DNA from: Candidatus Binatia bacterium | Lineage (GTDB): Bacteria > Desulfobacterota > Binatia > DP-6 | Assembly: GCA_046327955.1 (NCBI GenBank) | Contig: JAXLXP010000005.1 | Span: 228,136-292,135 of the forward strand | Reading direction: 5' to 3' | DNA: 64,000 nt | Shown here: in pieces, positions 128 through 41,636 of the stretch | How the letters are laid out: each line of letters begins with the position of its first letter | Position numbering within the stretch: the stretch's first letter is position 1 | The notes under the pieces: model-generated | Database searches by the model: none | Told to the model about the DNA's origin: nothing | The model's input: the letters and a program-made list of their open reading frames with translations, nothing else | Program-made: the position numbers and the translations under genes

Positions 128-1654
128 TCACGAAGCCGCCGACAGCGTGACGACCAGGGCCTGGCCGCACGCCCCGGGAACCTTCGGATGCCGGCGGCGT
201 CCGTGACGAGCGATCGCGGCACGGACCGCCTTCAGCCGCCGCTGCACCCTCTTCGCCAGCAGCTTCTGTTGCTTCGCCGTGTTTGCGGCGGCCGCGCGCT
301 CGGCCAGATTAACGAGCCCTTCGATATCCTTCCGCAGCCGCGCCGGCAGCTTCACTCCCGGGCACGCGGTGGCCAGCGTCTCCTGCAGCCTGCACCGGAG
401 ACCTTCGCAGGGGCCGGTCGGCGGCGGCCCGGCCTCGCCCCGGGCGTGAGCGAAGAAGACCTGCTTCGTCAGGCTCGTCTGCCAGACGGCCATCCAGCCC
501 CCGGCACCGTCAGGCGTCACCGCATGGTACCAGCCATCGCGGCTGCCGGTCTGCGCCCACGTCTGCCCGTCGGTCGACGCGAGCACGTTGTCCCGTGGCC
601 TCGGCCCGCCCCAGAGGATCAGCCACCGGCCCACGCCGCCGTTGGCAACGAACGGCGCGGCGCCGTTGAAGACGAAGCCGCTCGGGGTGGGCAACGCGGT
701 CGGTGGGGACCATGTCGCACCGTCCGCAGAGCTGGCAGCGAAAATCTGCTGGTCCACCCGCCAGGTCGCCACCAGCCGCCCGGCGGGATCCGCGGCGAGC
801 GTCGCTCTGGCGTGGTCGTTGAAGCTCTCTCGGCGGTCGATGAGCACGCTCGCGGAGCCCGCGAAGCGGCCATCCGCACCCGCCCTGACCGCCCGCAGCT
901 CGCTCGGGGTCGACCCGTCCAGTGCGGTCGCGATCAGCCCCACGGGCCGCCGCTCGCAGCTCGCAAGGGCAATCAACCCCGTGGGCGCGGCCTCGGTTCC
1001 CCACGTCTGGCCGCCGTCCACCGAGCGTGCGATCTGCGCCGCGCCGTCCTGCGGGACCACGACCAGCCACGTGCCGCGGCCGTCGCTGCAGGCGGCGAGC
1101 CGCCCGTTGTTCGAGAGCAGCTGTCCGCCCGCGTCGCCCACCGCGCCGAGCCGGACCGGCCGGGACCACGTCGCGCCGGCGTCGATCGAGCGCGCGGCGA
1201 ACACTCCGTCCGGGTTCGACGGCCCCGCAGAGAGCCAGCGCACCCAGAGCGCGAGCCACGTTCCCTGACCGTCGGTGAGGATGCGCGGCAACACCTCGCC
1301 GGTTCCGACCGAGTCGCTGGCAGCCGCGGGGTCGATCAGCGCGGGCGCGCTCCACGTGGCGCCGCCATCGGTCGAGCGCGCGAGCACCACGTCCGCGTCA
1401 CGACCGAAGGGGCTGTCATCGTTGTCGATCCACCACGTGACGACCACGTTTCCCCGTCCGTCGGTTGCTACGTCGGCGTTGTCGCCCCGGGTCCCCGGCG
1501 TGGTGAGGTCGAGGGCCGGCTCGAACGATTGCGCTCCCGCGGCGACGGCCGCGAGCACACCTCCAACGGCGGCCAAGGCGCGAACCCTTGCGCCCAGACC
1601 ACGCGGTCTCCTCCGATTGCTCACCCAGGGGACTCGAAGCGAGCCAGTCGCCAT
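128..1654 (-). CDS. Secreted BNR/Asp-box repeat protein (sialidase-like beta-propeller) with a C-terminal Lys/Ala-rich helical module
   Basis: Five Asp-box (S-x-D-x-G-x-T-W) repeats: STDGGATWS, SIDAGATWS, SVDGGQTWG, SADGATWS, STDGQTWA. N-terminal signal peptide (MATGSLRV...LAAVAAGAQS). Strong SD GAGGAGGAAG just before the ATG at 1654. C-terminal CR-L...K/A-rich tail is shared with the proteins at 16799 and 41175. Confidence 0.75.
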   Translation of the reverse strand: MATGSLRVPWVSNRRRPRGLGARVRALAAVGGVLAAVAAGAQSFEPALDLTTPGTRGDNADVATDGRGNVVVTWWIDNDDSPFGRDADVVLARSTDGGATWSAPALIDPAAASDSVGTGEVLPRILTDGQGTWLALWVRWLSAGPSNPDGVFAARSIDAGATWSRPVRLGAVGDAGGQLLSNNGRLAACSDGRGTWLVVVPQDGAAQIARSVDGGQTWGTEAAPTGLIALASCERRPVGLIATALDGSTPSELRAVRAGADGRFAGSASVLIDRRESFNDHARATLAADPAGRLVATWRVDQQIFAASSADGATWSPPTALPTPSGFVFNGAAPFVANGGVGRWLILWGGPRPRDNVLASTDGQTWAQTGSRDGWYHAVTPDGAGGWMAVWQTSLTKQVFFAHARGEAGPPPTGPCEGLRCRLQETLATACPGVKLPARLRKDIEGLVNLAERAAAANTAKQQKLLAKRVQRRLKAVRAAIARHGRRRHPKVPGACGQALVVTLSAAS

Positions 1655-1869
1655 GCGGCTTCCTCCTCTGCTTGGGCGCGTGCACCGCCGTGCGCGGAGT
1701 GCAGGAACCATACCGGCAGGGGAGGCGATCCCGAGCGCAGGCGTGCGGCGGGACGGTGATGCCGTCGTGCAGGTGGTCGCACAGCGCGGATCGAAGCTGC
1801 GCGGCTGCCTGCACACCGCGCCGGGAGCTGCCACGCGCGCCCGGCGGCCGCGACCGGCGCGGAGCGCGC

Positions 1870-3294
1870 TCAGTGCGTGGTGCGCAGCCCGTACTTCTGG
1901 AGCTTGTCGATCAGAGCACGGCGGGAGAGCCCGAGGTCGGCTGCCGTCCGGGTCTGGTTGCCGTCGCGCTGGGCGAGCGCGTCGCGGATCAGCTGTGCCT
2001 CGTACCGCTCGAGGGCCTGGCGCAGCGGCCCGTTGGGCGCGGGAACGCCGGGGCCCGCCCCGTTGAACTTGGGAGAGAGCAGATCCCCGGTGATGTACCC
2101 ATCGTCGTCGGCCAAGGTGACGGCGCGTTCGATCTCGTTCTCGAGCTCGCGGACGTTCCCGGGGAAGTCGTACGCGGCCAGCGCCTCGAGGGCAGCCGGC
2201 GTGACCCCCCGGATGGGACGGCCACGGGCGTGCCGGTCGAGGAACGACTGGACGAGGGCGGGAATGTCTTCCTTGCGCTCCCGAAGCGGCGGCAGCGTGA
2301 TGCCCACGACGCTCAGGCGGTAGAACAGGTCCTTTCGGAACGTGCCCTCGGCCACGTCGTGCTCGAGGTCGTGATGGGTCGCGGCGATCACCCGGACGTC
2401 GACGCGCGTCGGCCGGCTGTCGCCCATCCGCCGGATCTCCCCTTGGTCGAGCACGCGCAGCAGGCGAGTCTGCAAGTCCGGCGGGCAGTCACCGATCTCG
2501 TCGAGGAAGATCGTGCCGCCGTCGGCTGCCTCGAAGAGCCCCTTGCGGTCGTTGATGGCGCCGGTGAACGCGCCGCGCCGGTGCCCGAAGAGCTCGCTCG
2601 TCAGCACGTCGGGCCCGATCGCGCCGCAGTTCTCGCTGATGAACGGGCGCTCGGCCCGCGGGCCATTGTAGTGAATCGCGCGGGCGACCAGCTCCTTGCC
2701 GGTGCCGGTTTCGCCGAGGAGCAGCACGGTGCAGTCGCGCGGCACCACGCGCTCGACGAGATCCAGCGCGCGCCGCAGCGCCGCGCTGGTGCCGATGATC
2801 TGGTCGAACCCGTAGCATGCGCGCACCTCGCGCCGCAGCCGGACGTTCTCGGCTTGCAGGCGGGCATTCGCCACGCGCAGCTCCTCCTGCAGCCGCCGGT
2901 TCTCGCGCGCGAGCTGGTACACCTCGACGCCCTGCCGCGTGGTGGCCACCAGCTCGTCCTTGTGCCAGGGCTTCGTCAGGTAGCGGTAGACGTGCCCGGC
3001 GTTGATCGCCTGGATGAGCGCCTCGACGTCGGTGTAGCCGGTGAGGATGATGCAGACGATGTCGGGATGGCTCGCCGCCATCTGCTCGATCAGCTGCGTG
3101 CCGGTCATGCCGGGCATGCGCTGGTCGATGATCGCGACGCCGATCTCCGGATGCGCCTCGAGCAGCCGCAGCGCGGTCGGGCCGTCGGTCGCCGTGTGGA
3201 CGGTGTGCTCCCGCCCGAGCGTGATTCGCAGGAGGTCGACGCTCGCCGCCTCGTCGTCCACGACGAGGATCGCGGGGGCGCACTCGGGTGCCAC
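1870..3294 (-). CDS. Sigma-54-dependent response regulator (NtrC family: REC + AAA+ + Fis HTH)
   Basis: Receiver domain (VVDDE...D...LTKP). Sigma-54 interaction domain with Walker [15 protein letters not shown] and ESELFGH motifs. C-terminal HTH ([22 protein letters not shown]). Confidence 0.9.
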
Positions 3295-3435
3295 GGGGCC
3301 AACGGTAGCGCAATCCCCCGTGCGCGGCCAAGCTCACTGGTCCCATGCGCTGCGCCTTGCCGCTGGGATCGATACCCGCTAGCAGTCCCCCGTCGCGGCC
3401 TCGGGACCGGACCGCGACTACGGGACGGGAGGGAC

Positions 3436-4611
3436 ATGTTCGTCGACGAGACCCCGGAGCAGACGGCGCTGCGCGCCGAGCTTCGCGCGTACTTCGACAG
3501 GCTGATGACGCCGGAAGCGCGCGCGGCCACGCGCGGCATCGAGAGCGGAGAAGTCTACCACCGGCTCATCCGCCAGATGGGCCGGGATGGCTGGCTCGGC
3601 ATCGGGTGGCCGAAGGAGTACGGCGGCCAGGGCCGCTCGGCGAGCGAGCAGCTCGTCTTCTTCGAGGAGGCGCTGCTCGCGGGCGCTCCGCTCCCGTTCG
3701 TGACGCTCAACACCGTGGGGCCCGCGCTCATGGCGCTCGGCTCCGACGAGCACAAGCGGCGGTTCCTGCCCGGGATCCTGCGCGGCGAGATCCACTTCGC
3801 GATCGGCTACTCGGAGCCGGGCGCGGGGACCGACCTCGCGTCGCTCGCGACCACCGCCGTCCGCGACGGCGACGACTGGGTCGTCAACGGCACCAAGTCG
3901 TTCACCAGCGGCGCCGAGGGGGCCGACTTCGTCTGGCTCGCGGCGCGCACCGATCCGGAGGCGCCGAAGCACAAGGGCCTCACGATCCTCATCGTCGACA
4001 CCACGCTCCCCGGGTTCTCGGTTGCACCCATCCACACGGTCGGCGGCATGCGCACGAACATGACCTACTACGACAACGTGCGCGTCCCCGTCGCCATGAC
4101 CGTCGGGGCCGTGAACGGCGGCTGGCAGCTCATCACCGCGCAGCTCAACCACGAGCGCATCGGGCTGGCGGCGTTCGGCGTGAAGGCGCTCGGGCTCTAC
4201 AACGCGACGCTCGCGTGGGCGCGCGCCACCCTCGACGCCGACGGCCGGCCCGTGATCGAAGAGCCGTGGGTCCAGACCTCGCTCGCCGAGGCGTACTGCC
4301 GGCTGAAGGCGATGCGGGTGATGAACGCGCGGATGGCGTGGGAGCTGGAGCAGGGGAAGGTCGACCCGGCGCGCGCCTCGGCCGCGAAGGTGTACGGCAC
4401 GGAGTGCGTGATCGAGGTCTGCCGCCTCCTGCTCCAGGTGGTCGGGCCGCTCGGCGCGCTGCAGGCGGACTCGCCCGGTGCCGCGCTGCACGGCGAGCTG
4501 GAGCAGCAGTATCGCCTCTGCCAGATCAACACGTTCGGCGGCGGCGTCAACGAGATCCAACGCGAGATCGTCGCCATGCTCGGCTTGCGCATGCCGCGCG
4601 TCCCGCGGTGA
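3436..4611 (+). CDS. Acyl-CoA dehydrogenase
   Basis: ACAD family signatures (GWLGIGWPKEYGG, YSEPGAGTDLASLAT, GTKSFTSGA, C-terminal QINTFGGGVNEIQREIVA). ATG at 3436. Only the C-terminal 391 aa of the long six-frame ORF 1588..4611 are real. Confidence 0.9.
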   Translation: MFVDETPEQTALRAELRAYFDRLMTPEARAATRGIESGEVYHRLIRQMGRDGWLGIGWPKEYGGQGRSASEQLVFFEEALLAGAPLPFVTLNTVGPALMALGSDEHKRRFLPGILRGEIHFAIGYSEPGAGTDLASLATTAVRDGDDWVVNGTKSFTSGAEGADFVWLAARTDPEAPKHKGLTILIVDTTLPGFSVAPIHTVGGMRTNMTYYDNVRVPVAMTVGAVNGGWQLITAQLNHERIGLAAFGVKALGLYNATLAWARATLDADGRPVIEEPWVQTSLAEAYCRLKAMRVMNARMAWELEQGKVDPARASAAKVYGTECVIEVCRLLLQVVGPLGALQADSPGAALHGELEQQYRLCQINTFGGGVNEIQREIVAMLGLRMPRVPR

Positions 4612-4621
4612 GGGAAGATCG

Positions 4622-5737: not shown

Positions 5738-5741
5738 GCCC

Positions 5742-6593: not shown

Positions 6594-6648
6594 GGGCGCC
6601 GCTACTTCCGGGGAACGCAGACCGGACGTTTCGCCCGCCGCGTGGCGA

Positions 6649-10378: not shown

Positions 10379-11323
10379 CTATTGCAGCCCGAGCGCCCGC
10401 ACCGGAACCGCCCGCCCGAGGAGGCCGTCGAGGTACCCGCGGACGAGCAACGTCACGACGCGCGTCTCGCCGTGGCGCCAGCGCCGCGCGAGCTCGAGCG
10501 GGAGGCTCGCGGTGATCGTGACCGCGAGGCGGAGCCACTGCCCCGGCCGCGCGTGCTTGCGCGCGAACAGCACCGTGTTGCGCGCCGCCAGGTAGCGGAC
10601 CGGGTTCGCCGGCCCGCGCGGTGCGAGGCTGCCCTCGCCCTGGTGTACGACGCGCGCCGCCGGGGCGAACAGCACGTGCCACCCGCGTGCGCGTGCCGAC
10701 GTACACCAGTCGACGTCCTCGTGGTACGCGAAGAACCGATCGTCGAGCAGCCCGATGTCCTCGAGCGCCGCGCGCGCGAGGAGCATCGCGCAGCCCGGGA
10801 CCCAGTCGACCTCGCGGACCGCGGCGAACGCCGGACCGTCGGGCACGCCGTTGCCGACGCGTTCGACCAGCGCGGCGCCGTACGTGAGCCGGCCCCACGC
10901 CACCCACAGCCGCGAGGGATCCTTGCCCCACAGCACCTTCGCGCCGACCGCCGCCACGCGCGAGCGGCTCTGCGCGACGCGCACCAGCTCACCGAGGCAG
11001 TCGCGATCGAGCACGGCGTCGTTGTTGAGCAGCACCACCCACTCGGCGCCCGCCGCCAGCGCGCGGCGGATGGCGACGTTGTTGCCCCCGGTGAAGCCCA
11101 GGTTCTCCGGCAGCGCGATCAGCTCGGCGCCCGGTGCCGCCGCCGCGACCTCGGCCGGTGCGAGCGCCCCCGTCCCGTTGTCGACGACGAGCAACGCGCG
11201 TGGCGGAACACTCGAGCCGGCGACGCTGCGCAGGCAGGCGAGCGTATCGGCCTTCGATCCCCAGTGCAGCACGATGACGGCCGCGGCAGGGTCGCTCGCC
11301 ACGAGCCCGGGCGTCGCGCTCAC
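10379..11323 (-). CDS. Family-2 glycosyltransferase
   Basis: GT-A fold motifs (VIVLHWG..., LLVVDNGT, DAV/DxD-like LLNNDAVLD, ...FFAYHEDVDWC). The GTG start overlaps the upstream stop as GTGA. Confidence 0.8.
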   Translation of the reverse strand: MSATPGLVASDPAAAVIVLHWGSKADTLACLRSVAGSSVPPRALLVVDNGTGALAPAEVAAAAPGAELIALPENLGFTGGNNVAIRRALAAGAEWVVLLNNDAVLDRDCLGELVRVAQSRSRVAAVGAKVLWGKDPSRLWVAWGRLTYGAALVERVGNGVPDGPAFAAVREVDWVPGCAMLLARAALEDIGLLDDRFFAYHEDVDWCTSARARGWHVLFAPAARVVHQGEGSLAPRGPANPVRYLAARNTVLFARKHARPGQWLRLAVTITASLPLELARRWRHGETRVVTLLVRGYLDGLLGRAVPVRALGLQ

Positions 11324-13026
11324 GCCTGGCCCACGGGACCCGGCGGCTTCTTCAACCGGCGCAGCCGCCGCCACACCGTCGTGCGGTTGACGCCGAGCGC
11401 GCGCGCCGCGCGCGAGCGATTGCCCTCGTGCTGCGAGAGCGCGGCGAGCGTGCGCTCGACGTCGTTGACGCGCGCCGGCAGCGGCTCGGTGAGCACCGGA
11501 CGCACGAAGCTGCGCGGCAGCGCGTCGACATCGATCACGTTCCCGCGGGCGCACACCGCGGCATGCTCGAGCGTGGTCTCGAGCTCGCGGACGTTGCCCG
11601 GCCACGCGTGGCGCAGGAACATGTCCATGACGTCGGCGCTCGCGGTGCGCACGCCGATGCCGCGGTCACCGAGCCGCCCGAGCAGGTGCTGGACGAGCAG
11701 GGGGAGGTCGCCGCGGCGCTCGCGCAGGGGCGGCAGCGCGATCGGGAGGGCGTGCAGCCGGTAGTAGAGGTCGGTGCGGAACTGGCCGAGACGCACCGCC
11801 TCGTGGAGGTCGCGGCTGGTGGTGGCGATGACGCGAACGTCGACGCGTGCCGTGTGGGCGCTTCCCACGCGCTCGAGCTCGTGCGTTTCGAGGAAGCGGA
11901 GGAGCTTTGCCTGCATCGTCGGAGACAGGTCGCCGACTTCGTCGAGGACCACGGTGCCGCCGTCGGCGACCTCGAACCGGCCCGCCATGTCGCGCGCGGC
12001 TCCCGGGAACGCGCCCCGCACGTGGCCGAAGAGCTCGCTCTCGAGGAGCCCCTCCGGGAGCGCCGCGCAGTGCACCGTGACGAGCGGCTTCTTCGCACGC
12101 GGGCCGAGGCGGTGGATCGTCTCCGCAAGAAGGCTCTTGCCGGTGCCGCTCTCTCCCTCCAGCAGGAGCGTGGCGTCGTTGTCCTTGACCGCCGCAACGA
12201 GCTCGGCGACCCGCCGCATGTGCGGGCTCGTGCCGAGGAGGATGCTCGACGGGTCGCTCGCGGGCGCGGCGAGCGCGCGGCGGTCGCGGACGGCCTCGAT
12301 CGCGCCGGTGACGCGCCCGTGCTCGTCGCGCAGCGGTGCGACGCTGATGCGGACGGGCAGGGGACGACCGGCGCGATCGCGAAAGTCGGTCTCGAAGTCC
12401 GTGACGACGCCGCCCTCCGCGGCGGCGCGGACGGCGGGGCAGGTGGGTGACCGCCCACCGGCGCAGCCGAGGGCGTCCGTACACGGCCGGCCGACGAGAT
12501 CGCGCTCACCGCGGCCGAGGAGCTGCTCGGCGGCGCGGTTCGCGGCCGCCACCGTGCCGTCGGCGGTGAGGGTGACGACGCCGTCGCCGATGCTGTCGAG
12601 CACGGCCTGGGTACGGTTGCGTTCGCGCTCGACGAGATCGCTCTTCGTGCGGAGCGCGCCGAACAGGCCGACCAGGTGCCCGATTGGCCGCACGCATTCG
12701 AGGACGCCCACGGGCTCTGCTCGGCCGTCGAGACGCAGCGGCGCCGTGTGCAGACGGACGGGCTCACGGCCCTGGCGCCCGGTGAGCGCGACGTTGAAGG
12801 TCGACACCGCTTCGTCGCGCTCGAGCGCGACGTCGAGTGGGCAGCGGTCGCCGCAGGCGTCGCAGCGCAGGACCTCGTGGCAGGGCAGCCCGCGCGCCGT
12901 CGCACTGTCGAGGCCCGTGAGCGCCGCTGCCGCGCCGTTCATCGTCAGCAGTCGCTTGTCGACCGAGATGGCGAACGCCGGCTCGGGCAGGCTCTCGAGG
13001 AGCGCGACGGGGACGGCGACGGTCAC
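11320..13026 (-). CDS. Sigma-54-dependent transcriptional activator with N-terminal Cys-rich PAS-like sensor domains
   Basis: AAA+ sigma-54 interaction domain (GESGTGKS, GAFPGA, ESELFGH). C-terminal HTH (RAARALGVNRTTVWRRL). N-terminal Cys clusters CHEVLRCDACGDRCP and CTDALGCAGGRSPTC. Confidence 0.9.
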   Translation of the reverse strand: MTVAVPVALLESLPEPAFAISVDKRLLTMNGAAAALTGLDSATARGLPCHEVLRCDACGDRCPLDVALERDEAVSTFNVALTGRQGREPVRLHTAPLRLDGRAEPVGVLECVRPIGHLVGLFGALRTKSDLVERERNRTQAVLDSIGDGVVTLTADGTVAAANRAAEQLLGRGERDLVGRPCTDALGCAGGRSPTCPAVRAAAEGGVVTDFETDFRDRAGRPLPVRISVAPLRDEHGRVTGAIEAVRDRRALAAPASDPSSILLGTSPHMRRVAELVAAVKDNDATLLLEGESGTGKSLLAETIHRLGPRAKKPLVTVHCAALPEGLLESELFGHVRGAFPGAARDMAGRFEVADGGTVVLDEVGDLSPTMQAKLLRFLETHELERVGSAHTARVDVRVIATTSRDLHEAVRLGQFRTDLYYRLHALPIALPPLRERRGDLPLLVQHLLGRLGDRGIGVRTASADVMDMFLRHAWPGNVRELETTLEHAAVCARGNVIDVDALPRSFVRPVLTEPLPARVNDVERTLAALSQHEGNRSRAARALGVNRTTVWRRLRRLKKPPGPVGQA

Positions 13027-13502
13027 GACACCACCCCTGGCGCCGTGGCGGCGGTGGCCAGGGTGGCGCGTGCGCGCGCGAGGCGCGCGTGGTGCCGATC
13101 GTCGAACCAGTCGCCGGCCAGCGGGACGAGGCGCGAGAAGTCGACGCCGGCGCGCTCGAGCACGAGGCGGGTGAGCAGGTTCAGCTCCGAGCGCTCGATC
13201 TCCTCCGCGCGCGCGAGCGCGGCCGTGGGGGATATCCCGGCGCGGGCCTCGTCCTCGACGCGATCGAGGAGAGTCGTCACCGCGGCGAGCTGGCGCTCCC
13301 AGTCGCCCCCCGGCGCTGCCATCGAGGGAGGGAAGACCTCACGCGCCGCGGTGACCAGCAGCGCGTGCAGCTCCTCGTCGGCCGCCATCTCGCGCCAGAA
13401 CGCCGCGGTGGGTGGCAGGTGCTGTGCGGCCTCGGCGAAGCGGCCGTACAGCGCCCCGGTGCGCCGCTCGAGGTCGGCGATCCGCTCGATGAGCGCCCAC
13501 AT
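13023..13502 (-). CDS. Hypothetical ferritin-like/rubrerythrin-like four-helix protein
   Basis: About 160 aa with ExxH/ExxE-type motifs (AADEELHALL, AEEIERSELNLL). Its stop overlaps the start of the sigma-54 activator (ATGA). The start at MWALIER is tentative. Confidence 0.45.
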   Translation of the reverse strand: MWALIERIADLERRTGALYGRFAEAAQHLPPTAAFWREMAADEELHALLVTAAREVFPPSMAAPGGDWERQLAAVTTLLDRVEDEARAGISPTAALARAEEIERSELNLLTRLVLERAGVDFSRLVPLAGDWFDDRHHARLARARATLATAATAPGVVS

Positions 13503-13677
13503 GGGCGGGCCGTCGTGGTGGTGTTGCACGCGTTGCGGACATTGTCGCCTGCGCTCCGGCCCAGGGTCAAACCAGCGCGCGCCGTTGTGCGGGCGGTGCG
13601 GTCGTGGCCGGCGCACCGACCGGAGCGCCGCAACTCGCCTTGACGCCGAGCGCGCCTGCGCGGTAGGCGGCTCGGTC

Positions 13678-15528
13678 ATGATGCGCACGATCGTCGTCCT
13701 CACCGTGCTCCTGGCCGTCGCAGCGGCGCCTGCGGGCGCGACCTCCCAGGAGCAGCGCTGCGAGGCGGCCGCCTCGGCGGGGCTCGGCACCTGTGTCCGC
13801 AAGGTCGGGGAGCGCATGCGGCACTGCTACCTCGACGACGGCGGCCCTTGTGCCCCCGGCGACGAGGACGTCGCCACGCACCTCGCCCGACTCGAGCAGA
13901 AGGTGCTGGCTCACTGTCCCAGCTCGACCGTCGTGCAGGCGGCGGGCTATGGCACCCATGCGACGCCATCCGACCTGGTTGCTCGGTTGAAGGAGTCCTG
14001 CACGGGCGAGCCGGCGTCGATCGCGGCCCGGACCTTCGGCGGGCCGCAGGGGGCCGTGCTGGCGGCGGCCGGGGCGGCCACCCGGACGTGCCTCGGCACC
14101 GCGGCGAAAGAGGCGATCAGGATGTTGCCGTTGCAACTCCGGCTCTACAGCAGCTGCCTCAAGAGGTTGCACAAGCCGACGATCGGGAGCTGTCCCGTCT
14201 CGAGGACGAATGCCAAGGTCGCCGCGACCGAGGCCGAGATGGTCCGCAAGGTGACGGCCGCGTGTCCCGACCTTCCGGCCACGCTCGGCATGACCACCGC
14301 CGACTACGCGCACCGGACCAGCGCGCAGGCGCAGTGCATGACGACGACCGCCAACGGCGGCGACGAGTTGGCGCTCGACTGCGGCAAGGTGAGCACGCTG
14401 CCGGCGCTGGGGACGTGGACGCAGATCACGCTGTCGTCGTCGTCGGGTGCGCTCTGTGGCGACGGCAGCCCCTACGCCTTCTGGCTCAAGCTGTCGCCGG
14501 ATGTCGCGCTGCTGGATCACGTGGTGGTCGACTTCGAGGGCGGTGGGGTGTGCCTGACCGAGACCGGTCCGGCGCCCTGTGCCAGCGTTCCCACCAGTCT
14601 CTTCCAGGCGATCGACAACGGGCAGCCGACCGGCGGCTACATGTCGAACAACCCACTCGTCAACCCGTTCGCCGACTGGACGCAGATCTTCCTGCCGTAC
14701 TGCACCCAGGACGTGCACATCGGTGGCGGCGGCCAGAGCGTGTTCACGAGCCTCACGGTCAACCGCTACGGTGCGCTCAACGCGCGCGCGGCCCTGCGCT
14801 ACCTTCGTGGCGCGCTGTGGAACGTGCTCGAGCAGTCGACCGCGCAGGGCTACCGGCCCGACCGCATGACGGTGCTGCTCGGCGGCGAGTCCGCGGGGGC
14901 CTTCGGCGTGCAGTACAACTATCACTACGTACTCGACGATCTGCGTTGGATCCACACGACGGCGGCACCGGACGCGGGGTTGGCGCTCGACAACGGGACT
15001 GCCCTCAGCGTGCGCTCGTTCGGCACCGTGGTCATCGACAGCCTACCGCCGTCGTCGTTCGCGTGGCTGACGAAGACGGTCCTGCCGACGTACTGCCTGA
15101 GCGGCAGCTGTGCCGTTGGCCCGGAGCTGCAGGCGGCCACGTCGGTGCGTCTGAAGGCCGTACCCGACCAGCAGATCCTCAACATCTCCAACCAAGTCGA
15201 CGACGGGCAGGTGGGCACGACGTTCTTCACGAGCACCGCCGGCTGGATCAACGCCGCGCGCGCGGCCTACTGCACCAACCGGGGGCTCAACGGCATCCAT
15301 GCCTGGCTGCCCGCGCAGACGGCGTCGTACCACACGATCCTGCGCACCGACTCGCGCTTCACGACCGTCACGGCGGGCGGCGTGACGGTGCGCGACTGGC
15401 TCGCGGACGCGATCGCGAATCCCGCGGCGGTCGTCGATCGCGTCGACGAGGGGACGCTCGTCGCCGACTACCCCGGGGTCGCTCCGATCGCGTGCATCTC
15501 CTCGGCGAGCGGGGCGTTCGTCGACTGA
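13678..15528 (+). CDS. Secreted Cys-rich protein with esterase-like GxSxG motif (pectin-acetylesterase/Notum-like)
   Basis: Signal peptide MMRTIVVLTVLLAVAAAPAGA. LLGGESAGAFGV nucleophile elbow. Many paired cysteines. Confidence 0.6.
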   Translation: MMRTIVVLTVLLAVAAAPAGATSQEQRCEAAASAGLGTCVRKVGERMRHCYLDDGGPCAPGDEDVATHLARLEQKVLAHCPSSTVVQAAGYGTHATPSDLVARLKESCTGEPASIAARTFGGPQGAVLAAAGAATRTCLGTAAKEAIRMLPLQLRLYSSCLKRLHKPTIGSCPVSRTNAKVAATEAEMVRKVTAACPDLPATLGMTTADYAHRTSAQAQCMTTTANGGDELALDCGKVSTLPALGTWTQITLSSSSGALCGDGSPYAFWLKLSPDVALLDHVVVDFEGGGVCLTETGPAPCASVPTSLFQAIDNGQPTGGYMSNNPLVNPFADWTQIFLPYCTQDVHIGGGGQSVFTSLTVNRYGALNARAALRYLRGALWNVLEQSTAQGYRPDRMTVLLGGESAGAFGVQYNYHYVLDDLRWIHTTAAPDAGLALDNGTALSVRSFGTVVIDSLPPSSFAWLTKTVLPTYCLSGSCAVGPELQAATSVRLKAVPDQQILNISNQVDDGQVGTTFFTSTAGWINAARAAYCTNRGLNGIHAWLPAQTASYHTILRTDSRFTTVTAGGVTVRDWLADAIANPAAVVDRVDEGTLVADYPGVAPIACISSASGAFVD

Positions 15529-15571: not shown

Positions 15572-16555
15572 TCAGGGCGCCTTCGCCGTGCCGCGTACCG
15601 CTCGCACCCGTTTCGCGAAGCTCGTGGCGGCGCAGAAGCTGGCGCCCGGCACCGCGAAGCGGTAGCCGCTGGCGCTGACGCCGAGCGGGCAACAGCAGTA
15701 CTGCCCACTCCAGTAGTCGTCGTCGGCGTTCGGTTCGAGCGCCGCGTCGATGCAGGTGGTCCCCGAGATGCAGTTGAAGATGGTCGCCAGCTCGTCGAAC
15801 GAGGGGAGGCGCCAGTCCTGGTGGCCCCCCAGCGCTGCGGCGTTCACGCGTGGGATGAAGTCCGACAACGCGTCGGGGAAGGTGTACGTGTCGCTCACGC
15901 AGTGGATCGAGCCGGCAAAGCAGCTGACGACGTCGCTGGTCTTCTTCTCCCACTGCAGCTCCGTCTGACCGTCCGTGATCGTGCCGTCCCCGTTGTCGAC
16001 GAACCGGGACGTCGCGCATCCGCTCGTGTCCCACCGGCAGGAGGCGTCGCAGTGAAGGGTGCCGGCGAGGAACCCGACGTTGGCACAGCTCAAGTGCCGG
16101 AGGTCGTTCCCGTCACACTCCTCGTCGGCTTCGGCCACGCCGTCGCCGCACGCGATCGGCTGACACCGGCTTTCGTCGAACGTGCAGAGGGCCGTGCACC
16201 CGAGCGTGCCGCCGGGGAAGCCACGTGCGACACAGCTCTGGCCACCCAGGTTCGCGCCGTCGCACGACTCGCCGCCGTCGATCCGATCGTCTCCGCAGTA
16301 CGTCGCGCACGCGCCGGTCCCTTCTCGCTTGCACCGTTGGAGCACTGCCTTTCGGCAGCCCTTGCGCAAATCGCCGAATCCGTTGGCAGAGGCGCTGCCG
16401 ACGCAGTCCGCGATCAGCCCGTCGCAGGCCCGGCGACACTGCTTGGCCTTGGCGCGCGGCACCGCGGGCGGACCACCACGTGCCACGGTGCCGCCCGCGA
16501 CCAGAAGCCCGACCAGTATGGGAATGGCGAGGAACGTCTTGGAGCCGCCGACCAT
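15572..16555 (-). CDS. Secreted protein: two Myxococcales Cys-rich repeats plus a DUF1566-like (Lcl) C-terminal domain
   Basis: Signal peptide MVGGSKTFLAIPILVGLLVAGG. Repeats CGDDRIDGGESCDGANLGGQSC and CGDGVAEADEECDGNDLRHLSC. C-terminal ...TELQWEKK...DWRLPSFDELATIF, typical of DUF1566. Confidence 0.75.
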   Translation of the reverse strand: MVGGSKTFLAIPILVGLLVAGGTVARGGPPAVPRAKAKQCRRACDGLIADCVGSASANGFGDLRKGCRKAVLQRCKREGTGACATYCGDDRIDGGESCDGANLGGQSCVARGFPGGTLGCTALCTFDESRCQPIACGDGVAEADEECDGNDLRHLSCANVGFLAGTLHCDASCRWDTSGCATSRFVDNGDGTITDGQTELQWEKKTSDVVSCFAGSIHCVSDTYTFPDALSDFIPRVNAAALGGHQDWRLPSFDELATIFNCISGTTCIDAALEPNADDDYWSGQYCCCPLGVSASGYRFAVPGASFCAATSFAKRVRAVRGTAKAP

Positions 16556-16798
16556 GGGTGCGCCTTGGTGCCCGTGTTCCCACGGACGTGGGCACCCTGC
16601 AACCCACGGGTACCGGCGCCCGCTACGCGAAGCGGAAGATGTGAGAAGAGCGGCCCTGCGCGAGGGACGCGTCGCTTCATCGAGCGTATCTCGTCTGCCG
16701 CGCCAGCTGTGCTGGCCGCGGCATGCCGGCGGCGCGTCCCACGGACGCGACACGCTCGCGTCCTCCCCCGAGCCACGCCGTAGTCTCGGCTCGGGCTC

Positions 16799-18184
16799 CT
16801 ACACCTGCGAGCGCAAGGTCTGCACGTCGGGCGCGATGTTCGCGCCAGCCTTCTGGAACTCCGTGCGCAGCGTGTCGGGGATCTTCCGCCGCGCCGCCTG
16901 GGTGCCGAGGCGGTGCACGTACTGCGAGAGCGCCTTGGCCGCCTGCTTGAGCAGGGTGCGCGCCTTCTTGCTGCTGCCGAGCCCGCGCGCTTTCGCGGTC
17001 AGCGATTTCGCCTGCTCGAGGTTCTTGGCGAGCTTCGACTGGAAGCTGCCGAGGCCGGGCTCGGCGCGAACGCGGGCGAGGAGCGCATCGACGCGACAGG
17101 CGACGGAATCGAACGTCGCGGCGGCCGGTGTGCCGCCGCACCCGGTGGGCTGGGTCGTGGTCGTCGTCGTGATGGTGGTGGTCGACGTGGTGGTCCCGCA
17201 CACGGGCACGCCGCAGATGCCGGCGCCGTCGCAGACGTCGTCGGTGCAGGAATCGCCGTCGTCGGTGCAGGCGGTGCCGGCATCGAGCGGCGCGCACACC
17301 GACGGTGTGCCGCTGCACTGCCAGCACTCCTCGACCGCGCAGCTGGCGGAGCAGCCGTCCCCGGAGGTCGCGTTGCCGTCGTCGCAGGCCTCGGTCCCGG
17401 CGACGAGGCCGTCGCCGCACGACACCGCGTCGCAGATCGTCGCCAAGCTGTCGGCGACCTCCTGCGTGGTCATCACCGTGTCGCGGACCTGGAGGTACGC
17501 GATCACCCCAGGGTCGGTTTCGCTGATCGCCGCGCTGCCCGTGGTGTTGTCCATGAGGAAGTACACCGCCGTCGCGCTCGGCGCGTACAGGTTGCCGGTG
17601 TCGGTGTAGGTCCCCGACGGCGTGCCGTTGATGTAGAGCGACACGAGCTTGGTTCCCGCGTTGCGCGTGATCGTCACGAAGACGTCCTGGTTCTGCACGA
17701 ACGAGCCCGCCGCGTAGGTTCCGACGGGATAGAAGCTCACGCCGTTGCCGAGCTTGTAGATGCCGGTGTCCTGCGTGGAGTTGGAGAAGTCGATGAGCCG
17801 CGCGTACCCCGTGTCCATGGGGTTGTAACGCAAGAGCATCGAGATCGAGTACGAGCCCGTCACGACGCTCGGTGTCGCGTTGGCGTGCCGCAGCCCGCCG
17901 CTGATCGGGAACGACCACGCCCGCACGGTCGGCGTCGACGCACACGCGGACGCGCTGATGCTCTCCGTGACGAACGTGCCGTTCACGAAGTTCGGCCCGC
18001 TGGTGACGATGGTCGCGGTCTTGTTCGACACCGGGACGAGGACGTTCCCGGCACCTTCGATGGGCGCGAACGAGTCGCGAAAGAGGTAGGTCTCCGTCGT
18101 CAGCGCCCCGGCACGTCCGACGTGCAGCCCGAGTACCAGTGCCAGCTGCAGTGCAACGGCAAGAATGTGCCACCGATTTCTCAT
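16799..18184 (-). CDS. Secreted protein: LamG/concanavalin-like N-terminal domain, Myxococcales Cys-rich repeat, Thr-rich linker, and C-terminal Lys/Ala-rich helical module
   Basis: Signal peptide MRNRWHILAVALQLALVLGL. Repeat CGDGLVAGTEACDDGNATSGDGCSASC. TTTSTTTITTTTTT linker. C-terminal ACRVDALLARV...KKARTLLKQAAKALSQYV tail homologous to the tails of the genes at 128 and 41175. Confidence 0.75.
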   Translation of the reverse strand: MRNRWHILAVALQLALVLGLHVGRAGALTTETYLFRDSFAPIEGAGNVLVPVSNKTATIVTSGPNFVNGTFVTESISASACASTPTVRAWSFPISGGLRHANATPSVVTGSYSISMLLRYNPMDTGYARLIDFSNSTQDTGIYKLGNGVSFYPVGTYAAGSFVQNQDVFVTITRNAGTKLVSLYINGTPSGTYTDTGNLYAPSATAVYFLMDNTTGSAAISETDPGVIAYLQVRDTVMTTQEVADSLATICDAVSCGDGLVAGTEACDDGNATSGDGCSASCAVEECWQCSGTPSVCAPLDAGTACTDDGDSCTDDVCDGAGICGVPVCGTTTSTTTITTTTTTQPTGCGGTPAAATFDSVACRVDALLARVRAEPGLGSFQSKLAKNLEQAKSLTAKARGLGSSKKARTLLKQAAKALSQYVHRLGTQAARRKIPDTLRTEFQKAGANIAPDVQTLRSQV

Positions 18185-32576: not shown

Positions 32577-32589
32577 GCGCAGGGTGCCG

Positions 32590-36875: not shown

Positions 36876-36975
36876 TTCGTTGACGCCTTACCGCGCGGTC
36901 TGCGGGGCCAGGCGCGACCTCTCCGCTTCGGGTCCTCGGCGGGCCGGCACCGCCCTCGATCGCGCGGGCGTTCCG

Positions 36976-36996
36976 CCTCGGACAGGCGCTCCGAGG
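36976..36996. terminator. GC-rich hairpin (CCTCGGA-n7-TCCGAGG) between convergent korB and CBS genes
   Basis: 7-bp inverted repeat in the 157-nt convergent intergenic region. No U-tract, as is usual for this GC content. Confidence 0.3.
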
Positions 36997-37032
36997 TCCC
37001 GCCTGACCCCGCAGCCCGCGCGTCGAGACGCC

Positions 37033-37563
37033 TCAGCCGCCGTCGCGCCCGTGCCACACGCCCGCGCGTGCCGGGTCGGGCGGCACCGTCAACACCTCGT
37101 CGGGGAACAACTCGACCAGGTAGTCGACGATGTCCTTCACCGAGACGATGCCGACCGCGCGGCCGCGCGCATCCACGAGCGGGATGTGGCGGAAGCCGCC
37201 GACGCTCATCTTGTTGAGCGCATACACGATCGGGTCGCCGGGCCGGAGGACTTCGGGGTCGGGTGTCATGAGCTCCGCCACGTGCTGGTCGAAGTCGGGC
37301 CGGTCGAGCTTGAGGAGCAGGTCGCGCTCCGTGAGGATCCCGACCAACCGGTCGCGCTCGACCACGAGCACGCAGCCGACGCGGGCGCTGCGCATGAGGT
37401 GGATCGCTTCGAGCAGCGTCGCGCTCGGGGGTAGCGACAGCGGAGTGCGCGGCTGGAGCCGCCAGATGGGTTGGCGGAGCATGCGCCGGTCCAGCACCCG
37501 CTCGGCGGCGTCGGCCTCGACGCCGGCCTGACAGGCGAGATCTTCCTCGATCCACTCGTCCAT
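37033..37563 (-). CDS. CBS-domain pair protein
   Basis: Two CBS motifs (VGCVLVVERDRLVGILTERDLL; HIPLVDARGRAVGIVSVKDIV). GAGGGAGGAA SD before the ATG at 37563. Confidence 0.8.
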   Translation of the reverse strand: MDEWIEEDLACQAGVEADAAERVLDRRMLRQPIWRLQPRTPLSLPPSATLLEAIHLMRSARVGCVLVVERDRLVGILTERDLLLKLDRPDFDQHVAELMTPDPEVLRPGDPIVYALNKMSVGGFRHIPLVDARGRAVGIVSVKDIVDYLVELFPDEVLTVPPDPARAGVWHGRDGG

Positions 37564-37633
37564 GAGCGTTCCTCCCTCGGGACCGGGCCCGCGATGCGGG
37601 AGAACCGAGTGTCGGCCACATCGCGCGCCCCTG

Positions 37634-39253
37634 TCAAGACACGAGCGCGGGGCGCGTCGCGGCGCCCGCGACCGCGGCGGGCCCGCGATAGCTGCGGGCG
37701 AGCGTCCGCGCGAGCGCGTCGCGAATCGCGTGGTCCTCGGGGGCGAGGCGTGCGGCGGCGGCGTCGAACTGGACGGCGAACTCGGGCAGGCCCGCGGCCT
37801 CGAGCACGGCGCCCGCCTCGGTGGCCGCGGCCGCCAGACGCGGATCCTGCTCGAAGGCGCGCGTGTGGTACTCGAGCGCGGTCGCCGGCAGGTCGGCGCC
37901 GACCTGCCGGACGAGCCCCGCCGTGAACGGGTGACCCGCCTCGCGCAGCGCGACACCGAGGGCGTGCAGGCACGCGGGGTGGTCGATCCCGGCGGGCAGC
38001 GCCGCCTCGGCCGCCGCGCGGGTCGCGCTCGAGACGTGACGGGCGGATGCCAGGCCCTCGTGCGCGAGACGGGTGGCGGTCACGCTGTCGCCGCGGCGCA
38101 GCGCGATGCGCGAGGCCAGCAGCCACGCCCGCAGGTCGCCCGGGTCGATTCGGCGGCTCGCTCCGAGGATCGTGAGCGCGCCCTCGTCGCGCCCGACCCA
38201 GGCGAGCATCTCACCGACTGCGAGGCCGGCCTCCGCACGCCCGTCCTCGAGCAGCGCGGGGCGCAGCCGCTCGATGGCGACGCGGCACGCGGGCTCGGGG
38301 TCGACGAGGCCGCGGACCGCCATCCCGTGCGCGGCGAGACCCAGGTGGAGCGCCGCGTCCTGCCGCGTGTCGCGACGCGGGATGCCGTCCGCGACGAGCG
38401 CGACGACGTCCGCCATGCGGTGGGTCATCGTGTGCCGCCGGTGCACCTCGTCGGAGCCGCTGGCGGCGATGCGTGCGCGCTCGGCCGCGTGCCGGACGTA
38501 GTGGTCCGCCTTCGCCTCCAGGTCGTCGGGCCCGAAGACGTCGAGGTGAACGCCGGGCGTGAACAGGTCGGTGAGGCCGTTGCCGATGTGCTCGGTGAGC
38601 AGCATCGCGCCGCAGGCCATCGCCTCGAAGACGCGGAAGTTGAGATCGCCGAGGATGCACTCGTTGAGCGCAACCGCCGTCTGCGACAGTACCCACGCGA
38701 CGTCGCCCGGCGGCAGTCGCCGGGCGAGCGTCTCGCCGAACGTCGCGATCGCCATCCGGCGGCGGAGCCGCTCGATGATCGCCGTGCGCTTGGGGCGCGT
38801 GACGGGATCGACCAGCCCGACGAAGCTCACGGCGTGCGTGCGGGCGATGCCGAGGTCGCGGAAGACGGTTTCGTCGACGCCCCAGGGGAGCCAACGGGCC
38901 GGGATGCCGTCGGCGGCGAAGAACGGCACGTAGTCCCGCTGCGCGACCAGCGTGAGATCGAAGAGGTGCGCATAGTGGCGCTGCCAGAAGAAGTTGAGGT
39001 GGACGTCGATCGCCCAGTAGAGGCGCGGCGCGGTGATGGTCTCGACGCCGACGCCGAGGGGCTGGCGGCCGAGGGCGTCGGCGACGAAGAGCAGGTCGGC
39101 CGCGGGCGTGAGCCGGCGCCACAGGGCGCCCAGGTCGAACGGGCGACCCGCGACGACCACCTCGGGCGCGACCTCTGCCGCGGCGACGACCTCGTGCCCC
39201 AGGCGTCGCAGCGCGGGCACCACCGCGGGATGGCCGACGTGGAGGATGCGCAT
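37634..39253 (-). CDS. CgeB/DUF3880-like glycosyltransferase fused to a C-terminal TPR/helical-repeat domain
   Basis: N-terminal MRILHVGH... through ...LNECILGDLNFRVFEAMACGAMLLTE (GT-B C-terminal sugar-donor region), followed by Ala/Leu-rich repeats. Confidence 0.65.
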   Translation of the reverse strand: MRILHVGHPAVVPALRRLGHEVVAAAEVAPEVVVAGRPFDLGALWRRLTPAADLLFVADALGRQPLGVGVETITAPRLYWAIDVHLNFFWQRHYAHLFDLTLVAQRDYVPFFAADGIPARWLPWGVDETVFRDLGIARTHAVSFVGLVDPVTRPKRTAIIERLRRRMAIATFGETLARRLPPGDVAWVLSQTAVALNECILGDLNFRVFEAMACGAMLLTEHIGNGLTDLFTPGVHLDVFGPDDLEAKADHYVRHAAERARIAASGSDEVHRRHTMTHRMADVVALVADGIPRRDTRQDAALHLGLAAHGMAVRGLVDPEPACRVAIERLRPALLEDGRAEAGLAVGEMLAWVGRDEGALTILGASRRIDPGDLRAWLLASRIALRRGDSVTATRLAHEGLASARHVSSATRAAAEAALPAGIDHPACLHALGVALREAGHPFTAGLVRQVGADLPATALEYHTRAFEQDPRLAAAATEAGAVLEAAGLPEFAVQFDAAAARLAPEDHAIRDALARTLARSYRGPAAVAGAATRPALVS

Positions 39254-39405
39254 CGGTTCAGCACCGTGTCGGAGCAAGCCGTGTGCCGGCGCGCGTGATC
39301 GGGGGCGGGGATTGGCTCGGGTGAGGATGTCAGCGTGCTGACTCGACGCACGCGGCTGCTGACCACGGTTTGCCGTCGGGCTCAGAGGACGGTAGGCCGG
39401 CGGCG

Positions 39406-41100
39406 ATGGGTGACCTCCGCGCGGAGCTGCAGCGGATCGACGGCCGGCCGTATCCCGCGTACCGCGACCTGCGCGGCAGGACGTTCGTCGTCGGGCCCTG
39501 GCGGCTGACGTTGGAGCACGTGCAGGGCGATCCGTTCGCGTCGCCGAGCCGGCTGCGCGTCGACGTGCCGGCGAGCGTGCCGCGACTCGCCGAGGCGGCG
39601 CGGCGGACGGCGGACGCACGCCGCGCGGCGGCCGACTTCCTGCATCGCGCGCTCGCCGCGGCGCTCGGCGGGCGCCAGGGCGGTGGGAGTGGGAGGAGCG
39701 GGTTCGTGGACGTCGCCGCGGTGGGGCAGGAGGTGCTCGAACGGACCGCCGTGCGCGTCCTGCCGGACGGCGCGCTGGTGCTCCGCCTCACGGTCGGGCT
39801 TCCCGCGGCCGGGCGACGTATCCTCGGGCGCGAGGCGGCGACGGTGCTGGCGGAGCGGCTGCCGCGCGTGCTCGACGCGGCGGTGGGGGCGGTCGATGCG
39901 CCGGCGCTCGAGCATCACGTCGCGGTGGTGGAGGACCAGGTCGCGCTCCGCGCGCAACTCGCCGCGTCCGGGCTCGTTGCCTTCGTCGCGGAGGGAAGCC
40001 GACTCGCACGGCGGTCGGGCAGCGACGACCGACCGTTCGACGGCGGCGTGCCGCTCGCGGTGCCCGACGCGCTCGCCTGCACGCTCGACGCGCCGCACGC
40101 GGGCCGGCTGCGTGGCCTCGGCATCGCGGCGGGCGTGACGGTGATCGTGGGCGGGGGCTATCACGGCAAGTCGACGCTCCTCGATGCGCTCGCGCGCGGC
40201 GTCTACGATCACGTGCCGGGCGACGGCCGCGAGCGCTGCGTCACCGTCGGTGGTGCGGTGTCGGTGCGAGCGGAGGACGGACGTCCGGTGCGCGGCGTCG
40301 ACCTGCGGCCGTTCATCGGCAACCTCCCGCTCGGCCGCTCGACCGAGTGCTTCGAGACCGACGACGCCTCGGGCAGCACGTCGCAGGCGGCCAACATCGT
40401 CGAGGCGCTCGAGGCCGGTGCCACCGCGCTGCTGGTCGACGAGGACACCGCGGCCACCAACTTCATGGTGCGCGACGCGCGCATGCGCCGGCTCGTCCCG
40501 GGGACGGCGGAGCCGATCACCCCGTTCCTCGACCGCGTGCGGCAGCTCGCGACGGAACGGTGCGTGTCCTCGGTGCTCGTCGTGGGCGGTGCGGGCGACT
40601 GGCTCGACGTCGCCGACCGCGTGATCCGGATGACCGACTACGAGCCCGCCGACGTGACCGCCGCGGCGCGTGCGGTCGCGGCGGCGCTGCCGCTCGGTGC
40701 CGCGTCGCCGCAGGCGCCGGGTCCGTGGCCAACGGCGGCGCCGCGCCGGGTCGATCCGGTGAGCCTGGAGCCGCATCGGGGCGGCCGACCGCTGCGCGTG
40801 CGCGCGCGCCGGACGAATGCGATCGAGGTCGGCGACACCGAGGTCGACGTGTCGGCGCTCGCGCAGCTCGTCGATCCCGCGCAGTGCCGGATGATCGGCG
40901 ATGCGCTACTCGCGCTCGCGGGTACCTGCGACGGGCGGCGCAGTGTCGCGGAGGTGCTCGACCTGCTCGAGGCACGAATCGCCGCGTCCGGGCTCGAGGC
41001 GATCACCGCGCCCGGCTTCGGCGATCGCGCGCGGGCCCGGCGCTTCGAGGTTGCGGCCGCGCTCAACCGCTTGCCGGGCCTTCGTCTCCGCCACGGCTGA
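39406..41100 (+). CDS. ABC_ATPase-family (PF09818-like) predicted ATPase
   Basis: N-terminal ...YPAYRDLRG...LEHVQGDPFASPS. Walker A GGGYHGKSTLLDAL. Walker B-like ALLVDEDTAATNFM. Confidence 0.75.
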   Translation: MGDLRAELQRIDGRPYPAYRDLRGRTFVVGPWRLTLEHVQGDPFASPSRLRVDVPASVPRLAEAARRTADARRAAADFLHRALAAALGGRQGGGSGRSGFVDVAAVGQEVLERTAVRVLPDGALVLRLTVGLPAAGRRILGREAATVLAERLPRVLDAAVGAVDAPALEHHVAVVEDQVALRAQLAASGLVAFVAEGSRLARRSGSDDRPFDGGVPLAVPDALACTLDAPHAGRLRGLGIAAGVTVIVGGGYHGKSTLLDALARGVYDHVPGDGRERCVTVGGAVSVRAEDGRPVRGVDLRPFIGNLPLGRSTECFETDDASGSTSQAANIVEALEAGATALLVDEDTAATNFMVRDARMRRLVPGTAEPITPFLDRVRQLATERCVSSVLVVGGAGDWLDVADRVIRMTDYEPADVTAAARAVAAALPLGAASPQAPGPWPTAAPRRVDPVSLEPHRGGRPLRVRARRTNAIEVGDTEVDVSALAQLVDPAQCRMIGDALLALAGTCDGRRSVAEVLDLLEARIAASGLEAITAPGFGDRARARRFEVAAALNRLPGLRLRHG

Positions 41101-41174
41101 CGCGCGGGCGCCCTGTACGCACCGGCCGCGTCTGCTATGCTCGACGGCTCGCGGGAGGGGGAAAGGAGCGACAG

Positions 41175-41636
41175 ATGGATTCGGATGTGAGGAGGCGGAC
41201 GGCGGTCGGATGGCTCGCGGCGGTCGGACTGGCGCTCACCGCGGCCGCGGGTGCGGCCGACACGACCACCACCACGACGTCGACCAGCACGACCACCACG
41301 CTGGCGTGTACGGCGGAGGCGTCGATCCCGTCGGCGCAGTGTCGGCTGGGTCAGCTCGGTGACCTGCTCGCGGGGCGGGGGACGACGGCACCCGGCAACA
41401 CGGTGCTGTCGAACCAGATCGGCCGCGCGCTCAAGAACGTGAACCTCGCCAACGCGCTCACGGGCAAGAAGGCCAAGTCGAAGCTCAAGAGCGCGGTGGG
41501 CGCGCTCAAGTCGTTCAACGCGCGGCTGCGATCCGCCGCTGGCAAGAAGCAGGTCGACCCGACGACGCGTCAGGCGCTGCAGGCGATCTCCGGCCAGCTG
41601 CAGAAGGACCTCGATCAGCTCCGCCGCACGCCCTGA
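41175..41636 (+). CDS. Small secreted protein: Thr-rich linker plus the C-terminal Lys/Ala-rich helical module
   Basis: AAGGAG SD before the ATG. Signal peptide (AVGWLAAVGLALTAAAGAA). TTTTTTSTSTTTT linker. C-terminal AQCRLGQL...KKAKSKLKSAVGALKSF... tail homologous to the tails of the genes at 128 and 16799. Confidence 0.6.
   Translation: MDSDVRRRTAVGWLAAVGLALTAAAGAADTTTTTTSTSTTTTLACTAEASIPSAQCRLGQLGDLLAGRGTTAPGNTVLSNQIGRALKNVNLANALTGKKAKSKLKSAVGALKSFNARLRSAAGKKQVDPTTRQALQAISGQLQKDLDQLRRTP

Follow-up and report, generated by a model that had tools for sequence, protein, structure and literature searches.

Two of the three exported proteins discussed here, all encoded in a 64,000-nucleotide window of a Candidatus Binatia genome (contig JAXLXP010000005.1, positions 228,136 to 292,135, scanned over its full length), end in members of an uncatalogued domain family of about 105–120 residues. 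The proteins are called A, B and C, and because the G+C content of the window is 72.5%, their Lys-rich tails are conspicuous. A family hidden Markov model (HMM) was built from 107 full-length matches, leaving out the window-derived sequences P0001–P0003 in order to avoid circularity, and was run on the 572 six-frame open reading frames (ORFs) of the window. Tail B scored 148.9 bits (E=2.5e-45) and tail C 83.6 bits (E=3.8e-25), and no copy beyond these two passed. The three ORFs were found where the first-pass annotation had placed them, each with the C-terminal sequence that it had quoted, and all three products have Sec-type N-termini as read from the sequence. Their features are as follows.

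128..1654, minus strand: gene A, exported BNR/sialidase-like protein (Pfam BNR_2 and BNR)
131..409, minus strand: tail of A, helical (residues 416-508) and perhaps a divergent relative of the family
16799..18184, minus strand: gene B, whose product combines signal peptide, LamG-like domain, acidic Cys-rich repeat, Thr-rich linker and, at its C-terminus, the domain
17144..17197, minus strand: Thr-rich linker of B (GTTTSTTTITTTTTTQPT, residues 330-347), read from the sequence
16802..17143, minus strand: predicted four-helix-bundle domain of B (residues 348-461), two-Cys form (C349, C363-R-V)
41175..41636, plus strand: gene C, a 153-residue stand-alone form in which signal peptide, Thr-rich linker and domain make up the whole protein
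41256..41303, plus strand: Thr-rich linker of C (ADTTTTTTSTSTTTTL, residues 28-43), read from the sequence
41304..41633, plus strand: C-terminal domain of C (residues 44-153), with C45 and C56-R-L

As annotated, a Thr-rich linker precedes the tail in two of the three proteins, namely B and C; in A the linker is short and rich in Pro. The first-pass annotation had also described the three tails as clearly homologous, and this did not hold at the pairwise level. Composition-corrected BLASTP gave E=3.9 for A and B, E=0.10 for B and C and E=2.1 for A and C, none of them significant and all above the value of 0.01 beyond which the annotation itself would have given up the relationship. Since the pairwise comparison failed, a decision needed related sequences. 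An alignment of the three tails with P0002 (alignment A1), a homologue of C with 52% identity and the same layout, contains an invariant C, R and G. When the corresponding profile was used in an hmmsearch of 1.84 billion representative proteins, 381 matches were obtained at E≤1e-3 and 54 at E≤1e-10, nearly all of them covering profile positions ~3–106, in proteins from 100 to more than 1000 residues long. One of the profile matches, P0135, was rejected as a TPR-repeat false positive. A word-indexed search with tail B alone gave no match, and a DNA pattern search designed from tail B alone gave 508 matches of which none was confirmed.

At E<1e-3, BLASTP with tail B matches 106 of the 109 family domains and with tail C 61 of the 109, so that B and C are linked through intermediates despite the absence of significant direct similarity between them. 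The conserved unit is longer than the 80–90 residues originally proposed: it extends over ~105–120 residues and starts at a Cys ~14 residues before the C-R-[LV] motif.

Position and distribution of the domain

The proposal of a portable C-terminal module on otherwise unrelated exported proteins is supported by the family as a whole. In 145 of the 150 best matches the domain is followed by no more than 20 residues, and the N-terminal partners are diverse. Likewise, in the HMM-positive loci that were fetched, the end of the domain lies at most 13 residues from the stop codon in 81 of 83 domains. When the partners were tabulated, the passengers included Beta_helix, Chlam_PMP, Laminin_G_3, NosD, TSP_3, DUF4215, PD40, Vgb_lyase, NHL and BNR_2, among others. 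Many proteins are stand-alone forms made up of a signal peptide, a Thr linker and the domain, for example C, P0011, P0019 and P0046. All of the complete proteins inspected have Sec-type N-termini, and what is common to the loci is the C-terminal ~110 residues alone.

The distribution was surveyed with a degenerate DNA pattern designed by hand (F-x-S-[ILV]-x-C-R-[LV]-x2-L, 74 codons, R-x2-[LF]-x9-D-x3-L). Among 185,579 GTDB species genomes the pattern was present at 11 loci, 10 of them true by the HMM and with a G+C content of 64–73%, and in JGI and other metagenomes at 72 loci, 70 of them true. Across all HMM-positive loci from both sources the G+C content is 63–75%. The GTDB titles are Candidatus Binatia (two contigs from one metagenome-assembled genome, MAG), 'uncultured delta proteobacterium' (three loci), Deltaproteobacteria bacterium and 'bacterium'. 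Three implausible labels apart, every occurrence of the domain was in a high-GC MAG or a soil metagenome with the label Binatia or 'delta proteobacterium'. The three labels, all on true copies, are Solirubrobacterales (L009), Enterobacteriaceae (L010, at 70% G+C) and Actinobacteria (L002). The L009 protein shares 75% identity with one from an 'uncultured delta proteobacterium' MAG (L006), and probably these three labels are wrong or the contigs mis-binned. Paralogues can be in tandem: on one soil-metagenome contig (L061), the adjacent genes 3..839 and 1000..3027, both on the plus strand, each have the domain at their end, with scores of 138 and 71 bits.

No conserved neighbour gene was detected in 80 loci, where the largest clusters of flanking ORFs span at most 6 of the 80 and the top cluster consists of antisense ORFs that overlap the domain genes. 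A dedicated secretion or processing gene co-occurring with the domain, for which the first-pass annotation had proposed to look, was not found beside the 80 related loci, nor was any sortase- or exosortase-like gene found adjacent to the domain genes.

Cysteines, charge and predicted fold

The family consensus can be written as poly-Thr - L-P-g-g-C1 - x3 - p-x-a-P-T-F-x-S-I-x-C2-R-L-x-A-L ... L-G ... K-L ... K-A ... A-e-x2-C3-x4-5-K-K-A-k-k-r-L-K-q-A ... H-R-L-R-S-x2-A-R-K-k-i-p-x2-t-R-x2-L ... I-x2-D-x3-L-R-x2-L-x-C4-P. C1 is conserved in 97% of sequences and C2 in 100%, followed by R in 94%, and the L of C-R-L is conserved in 87%. The resulting signature, C1 ... C2-R-[LV]-x2-L with C1 ~11–14 residues upstream, is carried by B and C; A is atypical. 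C1 is located in the N-terminal extension, C2 opens helix 1, C3 lies in the loop between helices 2 and 3, and C4 belongs to the C-terminal 'CP'. C3 is found in 56% of sequences, as is C4, and the two always go together: both are present in 61 sequences, both are absent in 48 and no sequence is discordant. This perfect co-occurrence reads as the signature of a C3–C4 disulfide, which would leave C1 and C2 as the other pair by elimination. B and C are two-Cys forms. Other polar residues are also held at fixed positions, with the R after C2, R111 and D124 each conserved at ~94%.

The domain is strongly basic. Its mean net charge is +8.8, 88% of members carry at least +5, and the median isoelectric point is 10.0, with a composition of 7.4% K and 9.4% R. 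In the N-terminal parts of the same proteins (67 family proteins) K accounts for 0.6% and R for 2.9% of residues, and the net charge is −5.3 per 100 residues. It is striking that the passengers are acidic and almost free of Lys, so that nearly all the Lys residues of each protein are in its tail of ~110 residues. In the alignment, 21 columns are at least 40% basic compared with 6 that are at least 40% acidic, and those basic columns that are conserved are concentrated where helix 3 begins and in the connection between helices 3 and 4. A stretch rich in Thr, Ser or Pro lies ahead of the domain in 63 of 116 cases.

AlphaFold2 (AF2), run on tail B with a 43-sequence alignment (A3), gave a model with a predicted local distance difference test score (pLDDT) of 96.4 and a predicted template modelling score of 0.88. 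Helices are placed at residues 11-27, 34-55, 59-79 and 90-113, the last being kinked at 102-103 and so divided into 90-101 and 104-113. The structure prediction that the first-pass annotation had called for therefore yields a confident four-helix bundle for tail B, and we regard the predicted fold, with confidence, as a compact up-down bundle with a short N-terminal extension. In this topology the loop that holds C3 would lie near the C4 end, and C1 near C2, in agreement with the proposed disulfides. The fold is generic and uninformative on function. Foldseek found no significant match in the PDB (best E 0.13), and sequence searches of the PDB with profiles A1 and A3 and with P0060 gave chance-level matches only. 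In NCBIfam, no model matched the tails of the three proteins or the 43 trimmed domains at E≤1. An apolipoprotein-like bundle that opens on lipid was also considered, as Pfam Apolipoprotein matches B at E=8.7e-4 against a 90-bit cut-off; this is a composition-level match, and the idea was rejected because the putative disulfide staples and the compact, confidently predicted bundle oppose opening.

Tail A and the neighbouring genes

With respect to a tail shared by three proteins, the family HMM upholds the claim for B and C, and the membership of A is unproven. Tail A was not detected by the family HMM under default filters and, when these were switched off (--max), it scored 8.7 bits (E=0.051). 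The alignment to the HMM is nevertheless in register, with matches at C-R-L, at the Lys-rich start of helix 3 and at 'K-[VI]-P'. The sole close relative of A is its orthologue P0151, a protein of 634 residues with 54% identity that has the same module after a Thr-rich linker. When the modules of A and P0151 were compared with the family by hhalign, P=2.9e-6 was obtained with the linkers included; on removal of the linkers the score was 25.8 (P=5.9e-4, 29% probability). In 300 column shuffles of the latter comparison the mean score was 12.0 +/- 2.5 and the maximum 22.5, so that none exceeded 25.8. An AF2 model of tail A, based on two sequences only, has four helices with matching boundaries and a pLDDT of 77.5.

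Several features argue against the relationship. The Cys residues of tail A (C416, C421-R-L, C431 and C496) are spaced unlike those of the family, with only 5 residues from C416 to C421, and the last helix is shortened. P0151 has C-E-L in place of C-R-L, and its module is internal, being followed by a second Thr-rich linker and a Cys-rich C-terminal domain of ~120 residues. In addition, tail A has no match to the Pfam family FIMAH, to which some members of the family are related (see below). Taken together, these data make tail A a probable, unproven distant relative of the family. A ends within the last helix of the module (…QALVVTLSAAS*), whereas P0151 continues, and A therefore looks truncated at its C-terminus relative to its orthologue.

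The product of gene A is identical to P0003, which is encoded on a 711-kb contig and named 'MAG: sialidase family protein [Candidatus Binatia bacterium]' by NCBI. Immediately upstream of gene A is the first of two σ54-dependent activators in the window (1870..3294 and 11320..13026, both on the minus strand), one of which has a response-regulator receiver and the other PAS domains. An ORF at 12676..15528 on the plus strand, putatively encoding 950 residues with a pectinacetylesterase (PAE) domain (E=4e-12), partly overlaps the 3' end of the activator ORF 11320..13026 on the opposite strand.

In gene B, Laminin_G_3 is just below threshold (25.7 bits versus a cut-off of 27.6 bits in Pfam, E=1.4e-5); Pfam DUF4215 is also matched, and the Cys-rich acidic repeat scores 52.8 bits against NCBIfam TIGR02232. 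Directly downstream of B on the same strand, 15572..16753 (minus) encodes an exported Cys-rich protein with repeats (CGDDRIDGGESCDG..., CGDGVAEADEECDG...) and a match to Pfam Lcl_C (DUF1566, E=2e-14); it lacks the C-terminal four-helix domain. This gene and B may form an operon of secreted proteins.

For protein C, an identical copy is present on a Logan contig. Gene C is flanked by an ABC_ATPase/MRB1590-like protein on one side and by a type I dehydroquinase and a DUF7305 protein on the other (42342..43145, minus strand, and 39370..41100, plus strand). These neighbours are of the housekeeping type, and no secretion-related operon is present there.

Possible functions and relation to known families

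The domain described here is an autonomous, exported, Cys-containing and cationic four-helix bundle, C-terminal and located behind a flexible Thr-rich stalk. The suggestion that the tails constitute a portable C-terminal module and not a known sorting signal is supported. Our preferred reading of the function, held tentatively and with somewhat less than an even chance of being right, is that the domain lets exported proteins bind to, or be retained by, an anionic polymer. After Sec-dependent export, the domain would fold in the oxidising periplasm or outside the cell, where disulfides would staple the fold. Its cationic surface, a Lys/Arg patch formed by the start of helix 3 and the connection between helices 3 and 4, would then act as a non-catalytic binding or retention module, and the Thr-rich stalk would tether the acidic passenger to an anionic polymer, which might belong to the cell itself, as part of its envelope or exopolysaccharide, or be an anionic polymer that serves as substrate. 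The logic would resemble that of a carbohydrate-binding or cell-wall-binding module behind a Thr/Pro linker, unlike that of a cleavable sorting signal, and the stand-alone forms would recognise this target too, with no cargo attached.

A number of points weigh against the polymer-binding proposal. The role is deduced from the properties of the domain, and the disulfides are read from Cys conservation and co-occurrence. Some 12% of members lack a strongly basic character, with net charges down to −3. The polar residues at fixed positions could mark a specific protein partner, or may be structural only. Furthermore, the closest experimental parallel, the four-helix bundle of a Neobacillus novalis mannosidase discussed below, is likened to the domain by type of appendage. 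Beyond polymer binding as such, the domain could be the recognition and anchoring element of a Binatia-specific surface-display system that docks dozens of different exported proteins per genome onto a defined envelope component; it would then represent a new class of C-terminal retention domain that is helical, disulfide-stapled and cationic, and the gene for its receptor or secretion partner would lie elsewhere in the genome. We consider this broader scheme doubtful.

Specific protein docking is the main rival to polymer binding, and it is kept alive by the conserved polar residues. The bundle might bind a specific cell-surface receptor, in the manner of dockerin and cohesin, or self-assemble, and thereby cluster the passengers. 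The R after C2, R111 and D124, together with the HRL/ARKK segment, would suit such an interface, but the same polar residues may be structural salt bridges. Fold matches to 2rld, 2gsc and Avd are in keeping with self-assembly, since these are four-helix bundles that oligomerise. The presence of paralogues within a genome also fits: there are two or three in the window, a Binatia MAG has two that lie on different contigs, and L061 has its tandem pair. However, the 80 loci share no conserved neighbour gene and no candidate receptor was identified, and on balance we judge docking or oligomerisation to be unlikely.

It is also conceivable that the folded domain is recognised by a secretion machinery, in the manner of the C-terminal domain (CTD) of type IX secretion system (T9SS) substrates or of type II secretion, and is perhaps then cleaved. 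The strictly C-terminal position on very diverse passengers is what would be expected of such a signal, as is the confinement to one lineage, which is usual for dedicated sorting systems. We nevertheless hold an export or sorting role to be quite unlikely, as no dedicated machinery gene is found beside the 80 loci, no sorting-signal model is matched, and the predicted fold is helical and soluble, unlike a beta-sandwich CTD or tags of the transmembrane type. Moreover, the A-type module of P0151 is internal and not terminal. The stand-alone forms, having no cargo, argue against a pure secretion tag, and they argue equally against an intramolecular chaperone or inhibitor. An intramolecular helper, that is, a domain tethered to its passenger as stabiliser, chaperone or auto-inhibitor, much as the PMEI-like PRO region is in plant pectin methylesterases, is very unlikely also because the passengers have unrelated folds that no single inhibitor or chaperone surface could serve; the resemblance to PMEI is one of generic fold, with no sequence similarity at E≤10.

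Finally, it is scarcely credible that there is no real shared feature and that the resemblance reflects the composition of Lys/Ala/Leu-rich amphipathic helices: the pairwise BLASTP values of the three tails are indeed not significant, and the evidence for tail A is borderline on its own, but the idea is excluded for B and C by E-values of 1e-45 and 1e-25 against an independent family, the matches found are not the generic coiled-coil or low-complexity hits that the first-pass annotation had named as its refutation but are full-length and position-specific, with invariant Cys residues and a co-varying Cys pair, the AF2 model reaches a pLDDT of 96, the DNA-pattern matches are true in 80 of 83 cases and, for tail A, the hhalign score lies above all 300 column shuffles.

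The family is of interest in that Binatia are an uncultured and abundant soil lineage whose cell surface is almost unknown. The module provides a sequence handle on the surface and secreted proteome of this lineage, which includes beta-helix, LamG, propeller, PMP-repeat and sialidase-like proteins, and also suggests that these proteins have a mechanism of retention or targeting in common. NCBIfam does not cover the family and Pfam nearly misses it, and hence these tails are now annotated as nothing. The practical yield will be modest unless a ligand or a partner is found.

In comparison with known sorting signals, the tails are similar to MYXO-CTERM, PEP-CTERM, LPXTG and the T9SS CTD in being C-terminal, in having diverse exported passengers and in being restricted to a lineage. 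They differ from MYXO-CTERM, PEP-CTERM and LPXTG in having neither a transmembrane segment nor a basic stub. The annotated distinction from these three signals is borne out by the lack of any hydrophobic segment, by the absence of a match to the NCBIfam sorting-signal models and by the prediction of a soluble helical bundle. From the T9SS CTD the tails differ in their all-helical predicted fold as opposed to a beta-sandwich, and no Pfam or NCBIfam match to this domain was obtained with the tails in the window.

Among helical domains, the PMEI and invertase inhibitors (PF04043; PDB 1x8z, 1xg2 and 1rj1) match in fold, generically (Foldseek E≥0.13), and show no sequence similarity to the domain even at E≤10. 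They are plant proteins that stand alone and inhibit a single class of enzyme, whereas the Binatia domain is fused to many unrelated passengers. The only experimental datum on a similar appendage comes from the GH92 alpha-1,2-mannosidase of N. novalis (PDB 7nsn), which has a C-terminal four-helix bundle (FHB) domain (PMC10167667). Deletion of the FHB reduced binding to yeast cell walls by ~50% and lowered the melting temperature by 7 °C, with 81% of activity left, and the authors could assign no function to it (PMC10167667). This FHB is from a Firmicute and HMMER detects no sequence relation to the Binatia domain; going by the description in the paper, neither Cys staples nor a Thr linker is reported for it (PMC10167667).

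FIMAH (PF22888), a helical domain of ~81 profile positions, is the sole curated family matched by the tails and the only recurrent Pfam match, occurring in 24 of 150 full-length members (E≤1) and in 15 of 43 trimmed domains. P0060, a typical member that scores 142 bits against the family HMM, reaches 26.4 bits against FIMAH, compared with a gathering cut-off of 24.8 bits (E=1e-5, positions 8-79 of 81). Tail C scores 14.8 bits, below the cut-off (E=0.045, residues 100-140 against profile positions 37-77 of 81), and in Pfam tail B, like tail A, has no FIMAH match. We found no paper on FIMAH or on Binatia C-terminal domains. On these profile similarities we take the family to be an uncurated and divergent branch whose relation to FIMAH holds at the superfamily level only. 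Unlike FIMAH, the Binatia family has an extension with C-R-L that appears to be stapled by Cys residues, and an optional second disulfide is predicted; it is also strongly basic, strictly C-terminal after a Thr-rich linker, and confined to Binatia-like genomes. The link gives a Pfam family without a function a second context, one that is Gram-negative, Cys-stapled and cationic, and the Binatia domain is best filed as a lineage-restricted variant related to FIMAH.

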